The notes: generated by a model not told the origin, from the letters alone. 44,081 bases of DNA from a virus (UHGV-0083269), one strand, 5' to 3'; shown: positions 27,919 to 37,487, numbered from the stretch's first letter. A program made the numbers and translations.

Positions 27919-28431
27919 TTACTTACCTAAAATTTCAAAATGAGGGATAACGGTATACGGACCACCTACACTGGTTATCTTGTAAACATTGTCGCGGTTG
28001 CTGTTCATGTACTGGTAAAAACCATTGCGGTAGTCACCCTCAGTAACCATGCCGCCAGTCCATTCACCCTGCCAGAAAAAATCCTCTGGCCCGAAGGTGA
28101 TGCTGTCCGGAAGTTCATCATTGACCTGCGCCGCCCATGCTTTCGGAGTCATCCACGGCACCGCTGCACCGTCTGACCGCTGCACCATCACCTTGTCTCC
28201 GTCTGGGGCGTAAGCAATATGCAGCGCGGCATTGTCGGTACTGTCTGGGCCATACTTTTTCAGTATTGCGCCGTGGTCGGTTATCAGGTCAACTCCGGAT
28301 AAAACATGAGGATACCAGTACGCATCTCCTGTTGTGGCTGATTCGTAATAATTGAAAAGTGTTATAATTTTGCTATAGATATATCTCACCTCGCATTTAC
28401 GGGAGTTGAAACTGCGTCCACATCGCTCCAA
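27919..28431 (-). CDS. head-tail adaptor-like protein
   Basis: 170 aa. Positional call. Confidence 0.4.
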   Translation of the reverse strand: MERCGRSFNSRKCEVRYIYSKIITLFNYYESATTGDAYWYPHVLSGVDLITDHGAILKKYGPDSTDNAALHIAYAPDGDKVMVQRSDGAAVPWMTPKAWAAQVNDELPDSITFGPEDFFWQGEWTGGMVTEGDYRNGFYQYMNSNRDNVYKITSVGGPYTVIPHFEILGK

Positions 28432-29012
28432 CCACGATATCTTCTCTTGGTTATAGTGTTATAGGAAATCCCGGTTATTTCACTCCATTCTGTTAATGTA
28501 TGTGTTTCCCCATTTACAGTAACGTAAACATTGCCTCTTTTATTGTTGGCTTGCTGTTTCAAAGTTGCCCATCTACAATTTTCAGGACAATAATTTCCAT
28601 CCACGTTTACTCTATCTATAGTAAGATTTTCAGCATATCCATTTCCTAATGCCCATTCCTTAAAATCAAGGAATGACTTTTCCCATTCTTCGCAAACAGA
28701 AATGCCCCTGCCACCATAGTTTTTATAAGATGGCTCTCCAATATAGGAACAGCGTCTACGCATATCTACCCATATAGTGTATAAGCGTGTGTTTCTATCT
28801 CCATGAATTTTCTTAGCTTCCGACACTCTATCTTTTTGATAACAGCCGCAACTAAGTGTATTTTTGCGAATCAAATTATTTGAAGCTACAATTACTTCGT
28901 TTCCACAATCACATTTACAAAGCCACTGAGATTGCCCCGTTTTATTAACTTTATCAATGGCTATAAGTCTTCCGAATCTTTGATTTGTTAAATTTCTTGT
29001 TGGTCTTGGCAT
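28386..29012 (-). CDS. HNH_3-type homing-endonuclease-like protein
   Basis: FGRLIAI...WLCKCDCGNE...SCGC zinc motif plus LTIDRVNVDGNYCPENCRWAT HNH_3-like C-terminus. It sits as an insert in the structural module. Confidence 0.5.
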   Translation of the reverse strand: MPRPTRNLTNQRFGRLIAIDKVNKTGQSQWLCKCDCGNEVIVASNNLIRKNTLSCGCYQKDRVSEAKKIHGDRNTRLYTIWVDMRRRCSYIGEPSYKNYGGRGISVCEEWEKSFLDFKEWALGNGYAENLTIDRVNVDGNYCPENCRWATLKQQANNKRGNVYVTVNGETHTLTEWSEITGISYNTITKRRYRGWSDVDAVSTPVNAR

Positions 29013-30038: not shown

Positions 30039-31247
30039 TTACTGTGCGGTTACAGTCGTATGACCTGCGCTCAGCGCTTTATATGTGCTGTCGCACTCAA
30101 CTACAGTGATAACCTGGCCGTTGGCCGCTGTGATATCGCTCTTGCCGTCCCATGCGCTCCAGTTTTTCACATTCTGTCCATACTCTACAGTGGTCTCAGA
30201 AGATGCCACTTTGTACTTATAGACGTTACCAGCGTTGCCCTTTTCCGGATTAACAGTAATCTTTGTGGTACCGCTGGATGATCCAGCTGTAGACTGTACA
30301 GTCAGATCGCCAAGAGTCTGAGATGTCCCAAATGTAATCACAGAAATAGCATCCAGATACTCAGCAAACAGCACCATACCCATGATTGCGAATGCCTCAG
30401 ATACAGCAGTGCTGTAGTTGCCCTGAGTATGGAAGCCGATCAGATTGGTTTCGCCGGACACTGTATAGGAGAGCCCAGCACGTGCAAAGTCTGAATCGCT
30501 CGGATCAACATAGTAAAGAACAATGTTGTCTACCGGTGTAGCGATTACCTTGCCACGCGGGATCTCGCTGTCGGACAGCAGGAACACAGTATTAAATCCC
30601 ATAAAATCTTTCATATACTGGAATCCGAACTGGTTCTGAATAGTGATATTTGCAGCGCCAAGATACTCATATACATCAAGGATGTTTACAAAGCCTGCAA
30701 TACCATTCGGAATGGAACGATGCATGTTTTTGAACTTGTCCTCAACGCGGCCTTTTGCCATAGCAAGAGCCATCTGGAAAGTATTCTCGGTAGAGGTAAG
30801 GGTACCGGTCTTAAGATAAGTGTAAAATCTTCCGGTTACATCCGTCTGAAGCTGGAAGAGGAACTCTTCGTCTGTCATCTCTACAGCCACATCGTAGCCA
30901 TAAGTCTTGATTGCCTCGATGGATACAGCCTTTGCGTACTTCTCCACATCCATTTCAGCATACTCTTTTTCTTTTACCTCGAATTTGGAGTACGGAATTT
31001 CATCTCCCTCTGCGACCTTACCGCTCTGTAAAGTTCCGGTTGCATATTTGGATTTCAGAGTTGATCCCGGCTCTTTTTTTATCATTCTCAGCACACCAAG
31101 AATTTCGGATAAGTGCTCCCAGTTGCGTTCAAATCTGGTTACAAAATCTACCTCTCTCGCGCGTACCTGAATGTTTTCTGTTTTTATAAGATTTGCTTTT
31201 GCCATAAAAGTTAAGCCCTTTCTGCCCGTAATTTGGGCGCCAGTCAA
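30039..31247 (-). CDS. major capsid protein with C-terminal Ig-like (Big_2-type) domain
   Basis: 402 aa, following the scaffold gene. C-terminal ...TKITVNPEKGNAGNVYKYKVASSETTVEY...VITVVECDSTYKALSAGHTTVTAQ is Ig-like. Confidence 0.65.
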   Translation of the reverse strand: MTGAQITGRKGLTFMAKANLIKTENIQVRAREVDFVTRFERNWEHLSEILGVLRMIKKEPGSTLKSKYATGTLQSGKVAEGDEIPYSKFEVKEKEYAEMDVEKYAKAVSIEAIKTYGYDVAVEMTDEEFLFQLQTDVTGRFYTYLKTGTLTSTENTFQMALAMAKGRVEDKFKNMHRSIPNGIAGFVNILDVYEYLGAANITIQNQFGFQYMKDFMGFNTVFLLSDSEIPRGKVIATPVDNIVLYYVDPSDSDFARAGLSYTVSGETNLIGFHTQGNYSTAVSEAFAIMGMVLFAEYLDAISVITFGTSQTLGDLTVQSTAGSSSGTTKITVNPEKGNAGNVYKYKVASSETTVEYGQNVKNWSAWDGKSDITAANGQVITVVECDSTYKALSAGHTTVTAQ

Positions 31248-31266: not shown

Positions 31267-31902
31267 TCACTCAAACAGTGACATGTTGCTTGCAATTGCA
31301 GCCTGTCGTTCGCTTGTATCTTTGATGTCCATGATTTCTTTTTTGGTCATCTTTCCACCCGGATGATTATTGCGGGTTATCCCTGTTGTAAATCTCGCCT
31401 GGTTCTGCATAGCGGTCTGCTGATCTTCATCAACAAATGCAGACGCATCGTCTTTTTTCATCTGATCCAGCAGATCATTAAGCCCCAGTATCCTTCCATC
31501 CTTAAGCTTAAGACCGGCGTCTTTGATGTCTGCCATAACAGCCTTTTTAGCAGACTCGGAAGAGAATTTAACATCTTCCAGTGCAGATTTAAGAGCATCA
31601 GCAAAATCTCTTTCATAAATTTTATTGTTAAAATTTTTCTCTGCATCTGCTGCTTTTTGCTTCCATGTGTCGACCTCTGCCTTGACGTTCTCTGGATCAA
31701 TGCCATCAAAGCTTTTGAGTGTAGCTTCTGCTGTCTCTGCCCGTTCCTTCCAACTGTCACGCTCACTTTCGACCTTTGACAGTGTTTTAGAAACTTCTCC
31801 GGCATTCTTGTAATGCTCAGACAATGCTTTTTTTACATCTGCCTTCTTATCTTCCGGGATGTCAATACCAAATGATTTGAGTGTTTCAATAAGTTTCTGC
31901 AT
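31267..31902 (-). CDS. scaffolding protein
   Basis: 211 aa, acidic with K/E/A coiled-coil, directly upstream of the MCP gene. Confidence 0.6.
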   Translation of the reverse strand: MQKLIETLKSFGIDIPEDKKADVKKALSEHYKNAGEVSKTLSKVESERDSWKERAETAEATLKSFDGIDPENVKAEVDTWKQKAADAEKNFNNKIYERDFADALKSALEDVKFSSESAKKAVMADIKDAGLKLKDGRILGLNDLLDQMKKDDASAFVDEDQQTAMQNQARFTTGITRNNHPGGKMTKKEIMDIKDTSERQAAIASNMSLFE

Positions 31903-31978
31903 ATCATCCTCCTGGCCGTGTTTATTGACCTGCCGCCGCAGGTAATGGATTAAGCCCGATAGACCACGGGCGGGGTAA

Positions 31979-32050
31979 CTCCGGCAGCCGGATTCGAACC
32001 AGCGCTATGAGAGTCAAAGTCTCATGCCTTAACCGCTTGGCAATGCCGAA
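31979..32050 (-). tRNA. tRNA-Gln (UUG)
   Basis: D-arm GCCAAGCGGTTAAGGCA as in bacterial tRNA-Gln. Anticodon loop CTTTGAC. T-arm GCTGG-TTCGAAT-CCGGC. 7-bp acceptor pairing. Confidence 0.6.
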
Positions 32051-32122
32051 AGCTGATAGCCGGACTTGAACCGACAACATATTGATTACAAGTCAATTGT
32101 TCTTCCATTGAACTATACCAGC
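32051..32122 (-). tRNA. tRNA-Thr (UGU), tentative identity
   Basis: Cloverleaf fold: acceptor GCTGGTA/TATCAGC, D-stem GTTC/GAAC, anticodon loop CTTGTAA, T-loop TTCAAGT. Confidence 0.5.
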
Positions 32123-32126
32123 AAAA

Positions 32127-32200
32127 TGGACCGCCAGGGACTTGAACCCCGGACCACCCGGTTATGAGCCGGGCGCTCTGACCAGCTGAGCTAGCGGTCC
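32127..32200 (-). tRNA. tRNA-Met/Ile2 (CAU)
   Basis: GGACCGC...GCGGTCCA acceptor, D-loop TAGCTCAGCTGGTCAGAGCG, anticodon loop CTCATAA, T-arm GGGGTTCAAGTCCC. Confidence 0.7.
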
Positions 32201-32527: not shown

Positions 32528-33070
32528 CTACAGCATATCTCTAAGCTTATCCACATAGCGCTTCACAAGATCGCGTTCTTCGCGGCATTCTGCGTCCTTT
32601 GACATATCACCGATTTCTGCCGTAAGCCCATCCAAGTGTTCCTCTAATGCGGCCAGCATTTTACGCTTACAGTCCTCTGATTTGCCGGATCGATAGCTCT
32701 GCTTTTGCGTCATGTAATCATCATAAGCATCTCGACCATCGCTCCGGCTGTAATGTCCACGCACATAATGCTCACCACGGCGCATATAGGATGATCCGCG
32801 GTCATAATCTGGCATTCGGCCATCAGAAGCGCTATAACGCCCCATGTTATCACGTCCGCGGCGCTCGCTGTAGTCACCTACACGCATCTGTTCCAAAACG
32901 GTCATATAATACTCGCCCTTTTTATCCCAATACTCTGTGTTTTTAATGTCTTTATACATATCAATCAGCTTAAAAGCCGTGTCCAGATTGCCGGAGGTGA
33001 GGCCTTTTTCAGCAATGTTAGATATCTCATCTTCAATACGTGCACATAAATCTTTAATATCTCTCATCAT
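32528..33070 (-). CDS. R/D/Y/S-rich low-complexity protein (CotG/coat-like composition)
   Basis: 180 aa with central RRGRDNMGRYSASDGRMPDYDRGSSYMRRGEHYVRGHYSRSDGRDAYDDY...SYRSGKS. Confidence 0.45.
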   Translation of the reverse strand: MMRDIKDLCARIEDEISNIAEKGLTSGNLDTAFKLIDMYKDIKNTEYWDKKGEYYMTVLEQMRVGDYSERRGRDNMGRYSASDGRMPDYDRGSSYMRRGEHYVRGHYSRSDGRDAYDDYMTQKQSYRSGKSEDCKRKMLAALEEHLDGLTAEIGDMSKDAECREERDLVKRYVDKLRDML

Positions 33071-33079
33071 CCCACCTCC

Positions 33080-33502
33080 TTATGCTACCCGTGTTACCAC
33101 AAGATTTGCATTTGCTACGGTGATAGCCTGGGTACTGGTATTCTCTACCGCAACATTAAAGCAGCATCCGCGCGGCACATCAATAAAGATTCCGGCAGAT
33201 ACGTTGTTAAACGCTTCTACCGCGGTCGGTGTGGAAATCATCTGGGACGATAAGACAGGCTCACCGCCGATTGCAATAGCAAGAGAAATTGCTTCCGCTG
33301 TTCCTCCAGTCGGCACTGCGATATTCGCAGAAAAGCTAACAAAATAGCGGGCCTTGCACTGATTAGTCATTCCTCTGAGGGTAACAATGCCGCTGCCTTC
33401 CCGGTGCTGCACGCATGCGGTTCCTTTTACAGCGGTGTTGGTATACACCACGTTTCCGTTTGCTGCCACTTCCTGAGCGGCAACAGCTAAATATTCAGCC
33501 AT
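33080..33502 (-). CDS. BclA-C-terminal-like (C1q/TNF-like jelly-roll) domain protein
   Basis: Start MAEYLAV after an AAAGGAGAAAACAAT RBS. GNVVYTNTAV...ARYFVSFSANIAVPTGGTA...ANLVVTRVA resembles exosporium BclA C-terminal domains (which end ...IIIEKVA). Confidence 0.45.
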   Translation of the reverse strand: MAEYLAVAAQEVAANGNVVYTNTAVKGTACVQHREGSGIVTLRGMTNQCKARYFVSFSANIAVPTGGTAEAISLAIAIGGEPVLSSQMISTPTAVEAFNNVSAGIFIDVPRGCCFNVAVENTSTQAITVANANLVVTRVA

Positions 33503-33639
33503 ATTGTTTTCTCCTTTTTCATATCGCAAAAAGGCAGGTCTAAGCCTGCCGATTTGCGTAATACCGGCATTGTGCCGAACATCCAACCATATTGCCGATG
33601 TCAGGAATATGGTTGGAAGATACAGATATGATGTTGTTG

Positions 33640-34410
33640 TCAGCAGTTACAGCCCGTATTGCAGCCGTAATATACGTTCGGGTTCGGCACCTGGTATGCC
33701 GGAATCGGTGCCGGATTGATCGCATTAATGAGCTGCTGGGTCTGTGCTGCCATAGCGGTAGTAAGCAATGCACTCTGACGATCCTGAGATGCAGCACGTC
33801 TGAGATCATTGTTTTCAGCCTGGAGGGAAGAAATCTTCTCGTTGCACAGGTAGTCCAGAATAGCTCTGGTTCCTGCGTTCTGGCTGTCGATAATGTCTCT
33901 GGTGTTGTTGTTCATGGTGTTCTGGAGTGCACAGGTGTTCTGCGCCATGTTGTAATTTACGCCCTGGATTGCTTCCCGGGTCTCGCAGCAGCACTGAGCA
34001 AGCTGCGCCTGGAGTGCGTTAGTGTTCTGCATGTTGGCTACAGTGTCGGCGTTAATAGCCTGCTGGATGCCGAAGCCAGTCTGCATGACGTTTGTATTGA
34101 TGCCGTTGAATCCGGTAAGCATACCGTTATTCATGGCATAGAAGCCATCACACAGGCCGCTGGACAGGCCGTCCAGTTTGCTGATAACTGCCTGGTTGTC
34201 AAAGCCACGCTGGATTGCGGAATCGGTGTATGCGCTTCCGGCTGCTCCACCTCCGCCGTTTCCCCAGCCATTGCCACCCCATCCGCAGAAAGCGAAAATG
34301 AATAAAACGATGAGCCACCAGACACCGTCTCCGCCAAACATTCCATCATTGTTCCGGTTGTTGGTTCCGGTAGCCGCCGCAATGTCGGCTAAGCTGTAAG
34401 TTCCATCCAT
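33640..34410 (-). CDS. membrane-anchored Gly-rich/QN-rich protein with YjcZ-like N-terminal segment and Cys-rich C-terminus
   Basis: AAAGGAGA RBS. GMFGGDGVWWLIVLFIFAFCGWGGNGWGNGGGG is a YjcZ-like motif. A long Q/N/A-rich region follows, with CCCETRE and C-terminal YYGCNTGCNC. Confidence 0.5.
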   Translation of the reverse strand: MDGTYSLADIAAATGTNNRNNDGMFGGDGVWWLIVLFIFAFCGWGGNGWGNGGGGAAGSAYTDSAIQRGFDNQAVISKLDGLSSGLCDGFYAMNNGMLTGFNGINTNVMQTGFGIQQAINADTVANMQNTNALQAQLAQCCCETREAIQGVNYNMAQNTCALQNTMNNNTRDIIDSQNAGTRAILDYLCNEKISSLQAENNDLRRAASQDRQSALLTTAMAAQTQQLINAINPAPIPAYQVPNPNVYYGCNTGCNC

Positions 34411-34457
34411 ATTGATATCTCCTTTGATTTATTTACATTCCCGGCCAGGATAATGTA

Positions 34458-34679
34458 CTATTTCATGCCGCCCAGCATCCGTTGAAACTGCTGTGCCATC
34501 TGCTGAGCCTGATCAAGCTGCGCCTGTGATATTCTGCCAGACTGCAACATCTTTTGTACCTCAGCTTTTGGGTCTCCCTTAAAGTTTTGCTTAAACTGCG
34601 CAAACTGCTGCATCATCTGCATGGGGCCGTTGCCGCCCATCGGCATGCCGCCGAACATTTGGAATAATGGGTTACTCAT
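34458..34679 (-). CDS. Q/M-rich small protein
   Basis: The ATG overlaps the upstream stop (ATGAGTAA), indicating translational coupling. AAAGGGAGGTG RBS. Confidence 0.4.
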   Translation of the reverse strand: MSNPLFQMFGGMPMGGNGPMQMMQQFAQFKQNFKGDPKAEVQKMLQSGRISQAQLDQAQQMAQQFQRMLGGMK

Positions 34680-35136
34680 CTGCTGCCGCACCTCCCTTTG
34701 ATCTCCGGCTCTCTGGTTTGGCAGTAGAGCCGCCGCTTGCTGGAAACGAATTTATCTTGTCCAGAATCTCATTGTATTTGTCAAAAAGGTCCTGGTACTC
34801 TTTACGGGTAACATACATATCATTCATGGCAGCTTCCGGTTGTTTCTGTGGCATTCTGCCGTTTATTTCGTGATACTCAAATACGCGTAAAGGTTGCGGC
34901 ATGCCGGATACATCCGTTGACTTGATGTAAAACCGCTCCGCTTCGCTGTCCATCAGCAGTACGCTTGATCCGGGCGCAACAAGGTAAGACTTTGCCCCAG
35001 TCTCTCCCTGCACCCAGAGTATTCCTTGGTTATTTGTCGGTGCCATCGGCTGCGGGACGGGCTGATATTGGTTCATCTGCGCCATACGATCCTGATACGG
35101 CTGGTATGGCTGATACATGTTCGGATATGCTGCCAT
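34672..35136 (-). CDS. P/Q/Y-rich N-terminal protein with small C-terminal domain (GerQ-like architecture)
   Basis: MAAYPNMYQPYQPYQDRMAQMNQYQPVPQPMAP... then ILWVQGETGAKSYLVAPGSSVLLMD. GGAGGAAATCGAAC ATG RBS. Confidence 0.45.
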   Translation of the reverse strand: MAAYPNMYQPYQPYQDRMAQMNQYQPVPQPMAPTNNQGILWVQGETGAKSYLVAPGSSVLLMDSEAERFYIKSTDVSGMPQPLRVFEYHEINGRMPQKQPEAAMNDMYVTRKEYQDLFDKYNEILDKINSFPASGGSTAKPESRRSKGGAAADE

Positions 35137-35296
35137 GTTCGATTTCCTCCAATTCTTCCAAAAAGATCAAAATATCGTGGTAATCGGTTTTTATAGGTAT
35201 CTCTACCTCATCGTCATCGGAAAACATCTTCTTCACGCTTATATTTTGGCATAAAAAATAAGCCCCTGACAGTTCGTCAAAGGCTCAATAAAGTAT

Positions 35297-35506
35297 CTAT
35301 AAAGTTCCACATATGCGAATGATCTTTGAGTTTACCCGGCGGCTGATCCGCTTCGCGGTGGCAAGGCTCACATTCATGTTTTCTGCGCAGATCTCCATTG
35401 GCACGCCTGCGGCTCGGTATTCAAATAAAGCTCTTTCCTCTGGTGTAAAATTCGCAAGTTTCCGGAAGTGGTTTAGCTCCGGCACTGTAAAATCATACAC
35501 TTTCAA
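35297..35506 (-). CDS. sigma-70 region-4-like HTH small protein
   Basis: FTPEERALFEYRAAGVPMEICAENMNVSLATAKRISRRVNSKI is a sigma region-4 type HTH. Start codon uncertain. Confidence 0.4.
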   Translation of the reverse strand: MKVYDFTVPELNHFRKLANFTPEERALFEYRAAGVPMEICAENMNVSLATAKRISRRVNSKIIRICGTL

Positions 35507-35517
35507 GATGAGATCTA

Positions 35518-35862
35518 TTACCCCTCACTTTCTATCGGCTCATATGGTAGAGCCAGACATCTATTATAAAGATCTTCGCCTGTTCCATTGCCTCCAAGTG
35601 TCTTGTATGGACGAAACATATACTCAAGATTGTCTCTGTCTTCCAGTGTACAGTACTTACGTTTTAAGTAAAACGTACACGCCTGATAGAGCCGATCATG
35701 GAGAAGTGCCAGAACTCCCGCATTAATAGCATTTGTTCTCGCGCGTTCCGTCTTCAGCTGTTTAGACAGTTTATGATATGCTCCCGAAAGTACTACTGAT
35801 ATAAGGCCAAACAGCCATGATACCCAGTGTGCTGTTATGTACAGTATAATCATTTCCATTGT
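35518..35862 (-). CDS. membrane protein with GGNGTG-motif cytoplasmic domain (holin-like?)
   Basis: Likely start MEMIILYITAHWVSWLFGLISVVLSGAY (TM). C-terminal ...YKTLGGNGTGEDLYNRCLALP. Confidence 0.35.
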   Translation of the reverse strand, partial: TMEMIILYITAHWVSWLFGLISVVLSGAYHKLSKQLKTERARTNAINAGVLALLHDRLYQACTFYLKRKYCTLEDRDNLEYMFRPYKTLGGNGTGEDLYNRCLALPYEPIESEG

Positions 35863-35869
35863 ATACTCC

Positions 35870-36265
35870 TTAGTTATGATTTTTCTCCCAGTAATATATA
35901 GGAATTTCTCCCCCGCTATCCCAGGTATCGTATATATGTCCGTCCTGCACACAAACAACATGGCCATCAATGCAAAGTATGTACGTCCCATGCTGATGCT
36001 CCGTGCAAAAATCAGCTACTGTATAGATGTTTTGGATATGATCGTCTATCATATGCCGTCGATATCCCTTTTCTTTTAGATATGCGCCCCATACGTAATT
36101 AGCACTTGGCATATCAGACAGCATACAAGCCTTTACCATGATGCCGGAGAAAACCGTCTCCCAGTCCTGCCCTGTTGCCTTACAGATGGCCCGGATAACG
36201 CAGTCACCTACGCGCTTACCGGCTGGATTCGGATTGTAATACTCCCACTCAACATCATATTTCAT
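35870..36265 (-). CDS. stand-alone papain-fold cysteine peptidase, C39-like
   Basis: GDCVIRAICKATG (Cys block) and HVVCVQDGHIYDTWD (His block) resemble C39/C39-like peptidase motifs. Confidence 0.4.
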   Translation of the reverse strand: MKYDVEWEYYNPNPAGKRVGDCVIRAICKATGQDWETVFSGIMVKACMLSDMPSANYVWGAYLKEKGYRRHMIDDHIQNIYTVADFCTEHQHGTYILCIDGHVVCVQDGHIYDTWDSGGEIPIYYWEKNHN

Positions 36266-36269
36266 AGCA

Positions 36270-37487
36270 TTATCCTTTCTTCAAATACGCATATCTTTTT
36301 GCCGCTCCTCGCGCCTTTGCCGCCTGTTCTCTTCCCCATTTGGCAATTCTGAGGCGGTCATCCAGTAGACGTAAGTCATTGGCTTTGCAAAAATCATTGT
36401 ACGCCCGGTTCTGCCTCTGTAAAAGATACGACTTTCGATCTAACTCCTCTTGTAGTTCTATCCTCAGTGCATCATCATTGCAGGTGTCTACAGCCGTTTG
36501 CAAGCCCATAACCATTTGCTTTGTCTTTCTGATTCTTCGCTCTAATGCTCGCTGCCTCTGCTCTAACTTTTCCAGCCTCACATTATCCTCTGTCTCTATA
36601 TCCTTATACGGGTTGTTTACCCCGTCACCGGGTCCAAAGCTGTGGCGGCAGTTCCAGCCACTTAACCCTTCGCCTGTCCCGTATCCAGTCACAGAAAATG
36701 GCGGGTATCGTTTATCTTGCCCCGTCCGGCTGTAAAACTGTCCTTGCCACCACAAATGGTTACCTGGATTCTGCCCGCCGTCTCCCGTTCGCGCCCCAAT
36801 ATGTGCCGACACAAGGATTATATCCCACTCCTGTTCCTTCATGCGCTCCATAGATATATCACCGGCTGCCTGGGCGATTCCCGTACGAACAGCCCGTGCC
36901 GTAGCTGTCTCAAGTGTATCTTTGTGCCCTGTTGGATACTGCACCACAACGCCATTCTGCGATATAGTGTCAACAGCCTCTTTTACAGCCTGTGTGTAAG
37001 AGACAGCACCACTCATAACCTTATGATATGCACTATCGCATTCGCTTATAAAAAGGCTTTGAGCCGCTTCCGCTGTTGTTCTGGTCATGTTTGACCACTC
37101 TCCCATAGTAGCCTCATAGTCTCTTTGCAACATTCGCAATAGCACCGGGGACTGTTCCAACGCTTCTGGTGCAATCCCAGCCGCTTCGTATATGGAGTTA
37201 TCATAGGCCGCAGCTTTTACGTTTGCATCCTCCATTGCTGAGGCAACTTCTTTTCTTTGTAAGCGCGTACGGATAGCGATTTCCTGTGTAATATCTTCCA
37301 GCAAGTATCCGGCATCTTGCAATATTTGTAGGCGCCACCGGTCGGAAGAGGTAAATATATATTTTTCTCCACGCCCCAGGCGGATCATGACAGCTTCTAT
37401 GATTCGGCTGATAATATAGTTATGTAGCGAAGATGCTATATCCTCGCTACCCTCTGCTATTTGTCTCAGATAATTTGGTGTCAGCAT
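36270..37487 (-). CDS. head morphogenesis protein, SPP1 gp7 / Mu F family
   Basis: 405 aa, immediately after the portal gene. ...VSAHIGARTGDGGQNPGNHLWWQGQFYS conserved block. Confidence 0.7.
   Translation of the reverse strand: MLTPNYLRQIAEGSEDIASSLHNYIISRIIEAVMIRLGRGEKYIFTSSDRWRLQILQDAGYLLEDITQEIAIRTRLQRKEVASAMEDANVKAAAYDNSIYEAAGIAPEALEQSPVLLRMLQRDYEATMGEWSNMTRTTAEAAQSLFISECDSAYHKVMSGAVSYTQAVKEAVDTISQNGVVVQYPTGHKDTLETATARAVRTGIAQAAGDISMERMKEQEWDIILVSAHIGARTGDGGQNPGNHLWWQGQFYSRTGQDKRYPPFSVTGYGTGEGLSGWNCRHSFGPGDGVNNPYKDIETEDNVRLEKLEQRQRALERRIRKTKQMVMGLQTAVDTCNDDALRIELQEELDRKSYLLQRQNRAYNDFCKANDLRLLDDRLRIAKWGREQAAKARGAAKRYAYLKKG

Follow-up and report, generated by a model that had tools for sequence, protein, structure and literature searches.

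The virus genome UHGV-0083269 was analysed over its whole length of 44,081 nucleotides (nt), referred to here as the window, which is a complete temperate siphophage-type genome. The interval 32528-36265 is an uncharacterised mobile accessory gene cassette that is common to thousands of phage contigs from the gut and rumen. In the window it forms an island that is a true insertion within the phage head-gene block, an accessory ("moron") region of composite make-up. Its parts are g131, the sporadic g114, the helix-turn-helix (HTH) gene g69 with a terminator, a five-gene cassette in the order g154-g77-g256-g140-g180 with a structured RNA and terminator between g256 and g140, a RAGATH-21 RNA and three tRNAs. 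The HTH gene and the five genes, in most cases with g131, travel as a single unit among phages of gut and rumen Clostridia that are not related to one another. As a kind, phage accessory cassettes are known; what is new here, as far as the searches show, is the g140 branch, the g131 family, the proteins without a known family and the RNA motif. An earlier account of this DNA, made without database searches (the sequence-only reading), had taken the combination of genes to be undescribed, and no description of it was found in the literature. The main text of a 2023 paper on sporulation genes in gut phages makes no mention of coat or exosporium genes.

The spread of the cassette was followed through g140, which is the best-conserved cassette protein everywhere. 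For the genome scan a 58-sequence alignment of g140 was too diverse, and a closer alignment was used. Clustering of the family at 90% identity gives 3090 clusters and at 50% identity 688; at least 584 relatives are in IMG/VR, and 450 blocks of the contig collection list exactly the g140 protein of the window. The layout of the window, with insertion hot-spots between g69 and g154, is shared by about 60 of the best 80 g140 loci (loci are numbered with the prefix L). A compact order, HTH-g131-g154-g77-g256-g140-g180, was found in genome and metagenome loci of Ruminococcus, Oscillospiraceae, Acutalibacteraceae, Faecalimonas, Agathobacter, Butyricicoccus and a Selenomonas isolate, whose contig carries five of the genes; most named hosts of the cassette are gut Clostridia. 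This order is retained at 23-60% identity in L083-L098, in L109 and in the cultured Butyrivibrio phage Ceridwen (L100). Gene order kept at such identities, in differing backbones and slots, argues that the cassette proteins work together.

At the tblastn level, the window has only g256 and g140 in common with a second group of contigs (37-60 kb). Open reading frames (ORFs) were nevertheless found there in cassette order, encoding a P/Q/Y-rich protein of 160 amino acids (aa), a 77-aa protein, g256, g140 and an R/D/Y-rich protein of 232 aa, and this version adjoins a tyrosine integrase and an HTH-excisionase fusion (L014-type loci). Comparison of the window with the integrase-adjacent types by hhalign linked g154 at 86% probability (expectation value, E, 5e-6) and g180 at 69%; the g77 types were not linked. 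Identity between the window and L014 is 82% for g140, 73% for g256 and 19-26% for g154, g77 and g180. The slowest-evolving two are g256 and g140, g256 being the second most conserved cassette protein between lineages. The slots also differ. In a Eubacterium ramulus lysogen, assembly GCA_977050415.1, the cassette lies at a prophage edge adjoining ribosomal-protein genes and is followed by ArdA, antirepressor and MazG genes, and in L109 the unit sits between an endolysin/holin pair and an integrase. In Ceridwen the unit comes after the endolysin gene, and the g180 homologue is preceded by an inserted HNH endonuclease gene; the Ceridwen homologues of g140, g256, g154 and g180 are among the products QHJ73765-73771, namely QHJ73766, QHJ73768, QHJ73769 and QHJ73771.

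Additional genes were seen in or beside the cassette of relatives. HNH/NUMOD4-type homing endonuclease genes occur inside it, for example between g77 and g256 at L104 1365-1916 (minus strand), and the Ceridwen endonuclease between g140 and g180 (L100 9518-10312) is 41% identical to the product of a 208-aa ORF of the window (28386-29012). In the integrase-adjacent versions L015, L016, L017 and L019, about 1.5 kb of extra DNA lies between g140 and the RNA motif that follows g256 (e.g. L015 8384-10001). At the cassette end of the E. ramulus prophage, a gene for a 128-aa protein of the Mn-catalase family (PF05067, to which the spore-coat protein CotJC belongs; L099 7029-7415, minus strand), which is a host or prophage gene, precedes the first small ORF by about 350 nt.

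The window encodes an integrase, lysis genes, terminase, portal, minor head protein, scaffold protein and a capsid gene. The minor head protein (36270-37487) matches PF06152 (E 9.5e-71) and the scaffold protein (31267-31902) matches PF06810 (E 4e-22) in a Pfam scan, and the eight ORFs of the island lie between these two genes, all on the minus strand. An IMG/VR search with the minor head protein showed that the block is present in 26 of 26 close relatives (83-100% minor-head identity). In 12 distant relatives (41-44% identity) the scaffold gene begins about 340 nt past the minor head gene, and all eight island genes are absent there. As distant relatives join minor head to scaffold and every close relative carries the block, the block is an insertion in the head module, and the sequence-only reading, which had proposed cargo inserted there and a comparison with relatives free of it, was borne out. 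The head module is an unusual home for the cassette, which moved there in the window lineage. The G+C content is slightly raised, at 0.48-0.51 over 32-35 kb compared with 0.42-0.46 over much of the genome. An identical phage was met among metagenome contigs only, and an IMG/VR contig shows 97-100% protein identity to the window across the island region.

Two further observations concern the head genes. On contigs carrying the identical phage, the capsid protein (30039-31247, minus strand) has a precomputed Pfam match to the S-layer SbsC C-terminal domain PF18316, a hint that the major capsid protein carries an Ig-like surface domain. In L032 (7996-11620) the minor head gene and g131 through g256 are seemingly missing, and the RNA motif, g140 and g180 are kept between portal and scaffold; either a deletion or an artefact of assembly may account for this locus.

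Each of seven ORFs, all but g69, matches a PHROG family without assigned function (E 5e-25 to 6e-63), and g69 matches PHROG 1190, a sigma factor family, at E 8e-4. Because these families match, the eight ORFs are real genes rather than shadow ORFs, a possibility that had been raised at the outset; independent gene calls on metagenome contigs with an identical g140 returned the same ORFs save g69. Eight genes were counted where nine had been proposed, since an ORF at 35030-35236 overlaps the start of g154 and is probably no gene. Nor are all of the genes translationally coupled, as had been described: g69 and g154 are 160 nt apart and g256 and g140 137 nt apart, with a terminator-like hairpin in each of these two gaps, and the remaining gaps measure -8 to 47 nt. 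Likewise, the tRNAs said to border the island, tRNA-Met, tRNA-Thr and tRNA-Gln (31978-32200, minus strand; ARAGORN and Rfam tRNA matches), are present, but on the scaffold side only.

The g140 gene (33080-33502, minus strand, as for all features of the island) encodes a stand-alone jelly roll of the TNF/C1q type (PHROG 20016, E 2e-57). Its AlphaFold2 model has a predicted local distance difference test score of 97.7 and is an all-beta, ten-strand TNF-type jelly roll. The top Foldseek matches of the model were the C-terminal domain of F-BclA (E 8e-8, template modelling score (TM-score) 0.71-0.78), BclA (E 1e-5) and ExsFA/BxpB (E 1.3e-5, TM-score about 0.76), and TNF ligands, C1q and two cyanophage tail proteins followed at lower rank. 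The Pfam family BclA_C (PF18573) was matched by 7 of 58 diverse members of the g140 family, with a best E of 1.7e-7. The g140 protein of the window gave no Pfam match at E <= 1 and no NCBIfam or Protein Data Bank (PDB) sequence match, and is thus below every Pfam threshold. The model, the order of the Foldseek matches and the BclA_C matches of relatives together agree with the jelly roll like the BclA C-terminus that had been read from the sequence.

Likeness to the exosporium proteins of the Bacillus cereus group (BclA_C, the F-BclA C-terminal domain and ExsFA/BxpB) therefore lies in the shared TNF/C1q-type jelly roll (TM-score 0.69-0.78), and, like ExsFA/BxpB, g140 consists of one small domain standing alone and lacks a signal peptide. 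Unlike BclA, it is phage-encoded, its hosts include non-sporulating bacteria, and it is a bare domain: the first strand of the 140-aa protein starts from residue 2, collagen-like GXX repeats and an exosporium leader are absent, and no NCBIfam exosporium-leader match was obtained. In Bacillus the collagen stalk and the exosporium leader do the anchoring, according to the F-ENA paper. The g140 protein forms a new stand-alone branch of the BclA-C/TNF fold.

The other proteins of the five-gene cassette, g256, g154, g77 and g180, together with the sporadic g114, make up four or five proteins without any known family; of the eight island proteins, five lack a Pfam family. No Pfam or NCBIfam match was found for the window copies of the four cassette proteins, nor among the families listed for 17, 19, 20 and 16 relatives, respectively, and sequence and profile searches of the PDB with g140, g131, g256, g154 and g180 returned nothing significant. 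The g256 protein (33640-34410; PHROG 16490, E 5e-55) is a single-pass, Q/N/Cys-rich membrane protein with an acidic N-terminal tail, one transmembrane segment at about residues 29-43, a G/W-rich linker, a Q/N-rich domain with a conserved CCC motif and a Cys-rich C-terminus. Members of its family have one hydrophobic segment, and the N-terminal tail carries a net charge of -2 to -4 in 16 of 17 members and 0 in the remaining one. The g154 protein (34672-35136; PHROG 21718, E 7e-38) has a P/Q/Y/M-rich N-terminus, a conserved central beta-rich domain and a C-terminal helix. The small g77 (34458-34679; PHROG 22984, E 5e-25), which overlaps the g154 stop, has an alternative GTG start at 34691 and is called as 73 aa on metagenome contigs. 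Finally, g180 (32528-33070; PHROG 28802, E 6e-63) has helical ends and an R/G/D/Y/S-rich middle (residues 61-130).

Three of these proteins had been compared with spore proteins in the sequence-only reading, and the comparisons did not hold beyond composition. No YjcZ or tiny-transmembrane profile matched g256 or the families listed for its 17 members, no GerQ profile of Pfam or NCBIfam matched g154 or the families listed for its 19 relatives, and for g180 and the families listed for its 16 relatives no profile match, sequence homology or tandem basic repeats of the CotG/ExsB kind were found, the similarity being confined to an R/G/D/Y/S-rich composition. The description of g77 as a small Q/M-rich protein was correct (Q 22%, M 15%). 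Across Pfam and NCBIfam scans of the window proteins and 94 relatives, no sporulation family other than BclA_C was found.

The gap between g256 and g140 contains an RNA of three hairpins (33525-33622) that are split by the short fixed motifs CUU, UGU and UAUUAC; the third hairpin is GC-rich, is followed by a U-run and is terminator-like. The window copy (98 nt) has a minimum free energy of -46 kcal/mol and a z-score of -7.0. The RNA was aligned by hand and modelled with two covariance models, built from 4 and then 24 sequences, and was found in the g256-g140 slot of 28 loci, four of which had not been used in building. In the alignment 97.8% of cells are paired and both sides have changed in 14 of 16 pairs. 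Covariation is 0.772, compared with 0.244 after shuffling (0 of 500 as high) and <=0.18 with slid partners, values to be read in the light of an alignment that was fitted to the model and so favours structure. The RNA has no Rfam match, and it stays with g140 where g256 is missing (L032) or apart (L077). From these sequence comparisons it is a candidate new cis-regulatory leader or attenuator. A by-eye search for an antiterminator pairing found a consistent one in the window clade only. A sigma-70-type promoter within the motif was considered and rejected, because the spacing of the conserved blocks varies with hairpin length.

A second terminator-like hairpin with a T-run (35259-35287; 13 pairs in the scan) lies directly 3' of g69, and a hairpin with a T-run occurs at the matching place after the HTH gene in L010, L024, L095, L096, L092 and L109, and in most loci. 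With a terminator right after the HTH gene, the downstream cassette genes seem to depend on read-through or on a promoter. At the other end of the island, upstream of the three tRNAs, a RAGATH-21 RNA (RF03097; 32371-32440) scored 79 bits against a gathering score of 70.3. It was also found between g180 and scaffold in L010 (11136-11211), L024 (11121-11196) and L095 (10409-10477), at 75.7-92.4 bits, and this recurrence between the last cassette gene and the scaffold means that it may belong to a leader of the scaffold/capsid operon rather than to the cassette. Other RNAs were seen in relatives: a DUF3800-VIII RNA in L087 (5457-5522), which precedes the HTH match there by about 215 nt, a RAGATH-18 RNA in Ceridwen (L100 1702-1774) and a skipping-rope RNA in L010 (15796-15898).

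The g69 gene (35297-35506; TTG start) encodes a 69-aa HTH protein of the sigma-70 region-4/LuxR type, and an HTH gene of its family sits just upstream of the cassette in other genomic contexts. Its own Pfam region-4 matches are weak (E 0.07-0.17, below thresholds). Among relatives, 7 match Sigma70_r4 (best 2.3e-4), 5 match GerE/LuxR (best 2.7e-9) and 5 match r4_2, and the reading of g69 as an HTH restricted to sigma region 4 is in line with these matches. Longer relatives match Tn916-Xis, the HTH being fused to an excisionase domain of the Tn916 type. A role as sigma factor was considered and rejected because regions 2 and 3 are absent from the 69-aa protein; the PHROG 1190 alignment and the other profile matches are limited to the C-terminal part of the sigma profile. 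The g69 protein and its relatives resemble GerE, small LuxR-type and sigma-70 region-4 HTH proteins and Tn916 Orf7-like proteins in being HTH-only, at 69-81 aa, and the window copy differs from them in scoring under Pfam thresholds.

The g131 gene (35870-36265) encodes a stand-alone, 131-aa protein with a papain-like (clan CA-like) fold and an invariant Cys/His/Asp set, and it is a new papain-fold family, a predicted cysteine hydrolase. Its nearest known systems are clan CA peptidases, namely C39 domains (PCAT1, ComA, LahT), staphopains (C47) and Josephin deubiquitinases. As best fold matches, staphopain and Josephin are equal to C39, and there was no match to Pfam C39 or C39_2 at E <= 1 and no Pfam domain recorded for 120 relatives; of the stand-alone C39-like peptidase proposed earlier, the papain fold and catalytic residues were confirmed but the C39 assignment was not. 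In contrast to C39 domains, g131 is only 131 aa long, and no sign of a partner ABC transporter was seen in the ORF lists and Pfam annotations of the cassette loci. The family has about 8000 or more clusters, in phages of Bacillus, Geobacillus, Clostridia and Prevotella, and its members are often solitary and in early or accessory regions. Lone copies occur near an ocr-like gene in Tsamsa-like phages of Bacillus, near RecE/RecT in Geobacillus phage GBK2 and in Prevotella Lak megaphages. The neighbouring g114 (35518-35862; PHROG 4105, E 9e-33) encodes a small protein with one N-terminal hydrophobic segment and no Pfam match, and is carried by part of the close relatives only.

The explanation that we favour, tentatively, is that the cassette is of the lysogenic-conversion type and that its products act together in the host cell as a membrane-anchored assembly that is neither part of the virion nor specific to spores. 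In temperate Firmicutes siphophages, moron or lysogenic-conversion cassettes sit between the lysin and the integrase/attP; the toxin genes carried by phages of Staphylococcus and Streptococcus are an example. In Ceridwen, L109, the E. ramulus prophage and the L014-type loci, the cassette is found in just such slots and brings regulatory signals of its own. The present cassette differs from those systems in having six or seven genes, none of them obviously secreted, and in being carried also by a phage seen only as lytic: Ceridwen has been observed in lytic growth only and has no integrase.

No obvious N-terminal signal sequence was seen in the soluble cassette proteins on inspection by eye, and for this reason the infected or lysogenic cell would make the proteins in its cytoplasm, under the control of the cassette's own HTH protein and of two terminators that depend on read-through. 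The g256 protein would tether the assembly at the cytoplasmic membrane, and a g140 trimer would be its binding module. Matrix or adaptor parts may be supplied by g154, g77 and g180, which are of low complexity, and g131 may process or cross-link a component. The assembly would then act on the host, for example in remodelling of the envelope or membrane or in exclusion of other phages.

Several points weigh against this host-directed explanation. The inspection for signal sequences has the limits of a judgement by eye. The transmembrane segment of g256 has positive charges on neither flank, so charge does not fix its topology. Family alignments show conserved Cys clusters in g256 and g140, which would fit an extracellular, oxidised, cross-linked structure such as a spore or virion better than a cytoplasmic one. 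A PADLOC scan of the window proteins found no defence family besides a weak coiled-coil match of g256 to ZorA (E 7e-4). The window lineage has the cassette within its late head operon and on that operon's strand. Lastly, g131 may not work with the cassette, because it is also solitary in unrelated phages.

Remodelling of the spore surface is unlikely. In this explanation lysogens of sporulating Clostridia would produce the proteins in the mother cell and incorporate them into the coat or exosporium. A surface unit of the BclA/ExsF kind would be formed by g140, the outer forespore membrane would be the anchoring site of g256, and the low-complexity proteins rich in Cys, Tyr and Gln would be cross-linked. 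The nearest relatives of g140 in sequence and structure are indeed the exosporium proteins F-BclA, BclA and ExsFA/BxpB; the absence of obvious signal peptides, the many Cys residues and the Q/Y/R-rich low-complexity proteins recall coat proteins; and a stand-alone HTH of small size and LuxR/GerE type, an enzyme whose papain fold would in principle allow transglutaminase-like cross-linking, named hosts that are mostly gut Clostridia and slots typical of lysogenic-conversion genes are all consistent with it. However, BclA_C is the sole profile match to a sporulation family, no sporulation-type promoter was identified, the cassette of the window lies within a late operon, and TNF-like knobs are also known in phage fibres (8ke9, 9k09).

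The hosts carry further weight. The whole cassette is present in Ceridwen, a phage of the rumen bacterium Butyrivibrio fibrisolvens, and five of its genes are on the Selenomonas contig, which argues against a spore-specific role, these hosts being without sporulation or in groups that lack key sporulation genes. Butyrivibrio is described as non-spore-forming, and Selenomonas is not known to sporulate. Published work reports that rumen Lachnospiraceae lack 29 sporulation genes that gut members have. The cassette is thus probably no spore-specific device. Of the proposal that the module could modify the host spore surface, the BclA-C-like g140 remains, while the other families brought no sporulation match; the evidence that had been named as counting against that proposal, a lack of sporulation profile matches together with the same genes as conserved virion proteins in non-sporulating hosts, was found in part, through carriage in Ceridwen and Selenomonas and with BclA_C as the only profile match.

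An accessory role in the virion is likewise improbable. In this explanation g140 trimers, perhaps on a stalk of g256 or g154, would sit on the capsid as decoration or make up head or side fibres, with disulfides stabilising them outside the cell. Several points would agree with it: in the window lineage the cassette is flanked by the minor head and scaffold genes and is on the late strand, its proteins show no obvious signal peptides, phage fibres make use of TNF-like knobs, and the Cys clusters are suited to an extracellular particle. Elsewhere, however, the cassette lies after the lysin, beside the integrase or at a prophage edge by anti-restriction and antirepressor genes, and this location outside the structural genes of other phage backbones makes virion decoration, the second function suggested by the sequence-only reading, unlikely. 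In loci of the second group, g140 is at least 80% identical, and no terminase, portal, minor-head, scaffold or capsid gene of the window kind is detectable within about 10 kb, which would be unexpected for a decoration that binds the capsid. The cassette also has its own HTH gene, internal terminators and a membrane protein.

A broader form of the spore explanation, which seems quite doubtful, is that the cassette is a phage-carried kit for a coat-like or exosporium-like layer. Trimers of g140 on a membrane-anchored g256 stalk would be embedded in g154, g77 and g180, which the papain-fold enzyme would process or cross-link and which disulfides would harden once oxygen reached them; the RNA leader upstream of g140 would gate expression. 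The layer would form on the spore surface in sporulating gut Clostridia and on the cell membrane or the remains of the cell in non-sporulating hosts. If this were true, phages would reshape the transmission form of their sporulating hosts. It is very improbable that the genes have no joint function and are unrelated morons piled up at an insertion hot-spot, with synteny due to recent common descent: g131 is solitary in many phages, g114 is sporadic and variable insertions, including HNH endonucleases, lie between genes of relatives, but the order g154-g77-g256-g140-g180 is held at 23-60% identity in several backbones and three kinds of slot, far past recent descent.

For the favoured host-directed assembly, as for the cassette at large, the cultured Butyrivibrio phage Ceridwen offers an entry point. 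The cassette ranks with the more frequent unknowns of human-gut phages and is a conserved multi-gene unit with its own regulator and RNA leader that hops between backbones. A conserved unit that does so must give a strong benefit, and finding that benefit would explain a sizeable piece of the dark matter of the gut virome.

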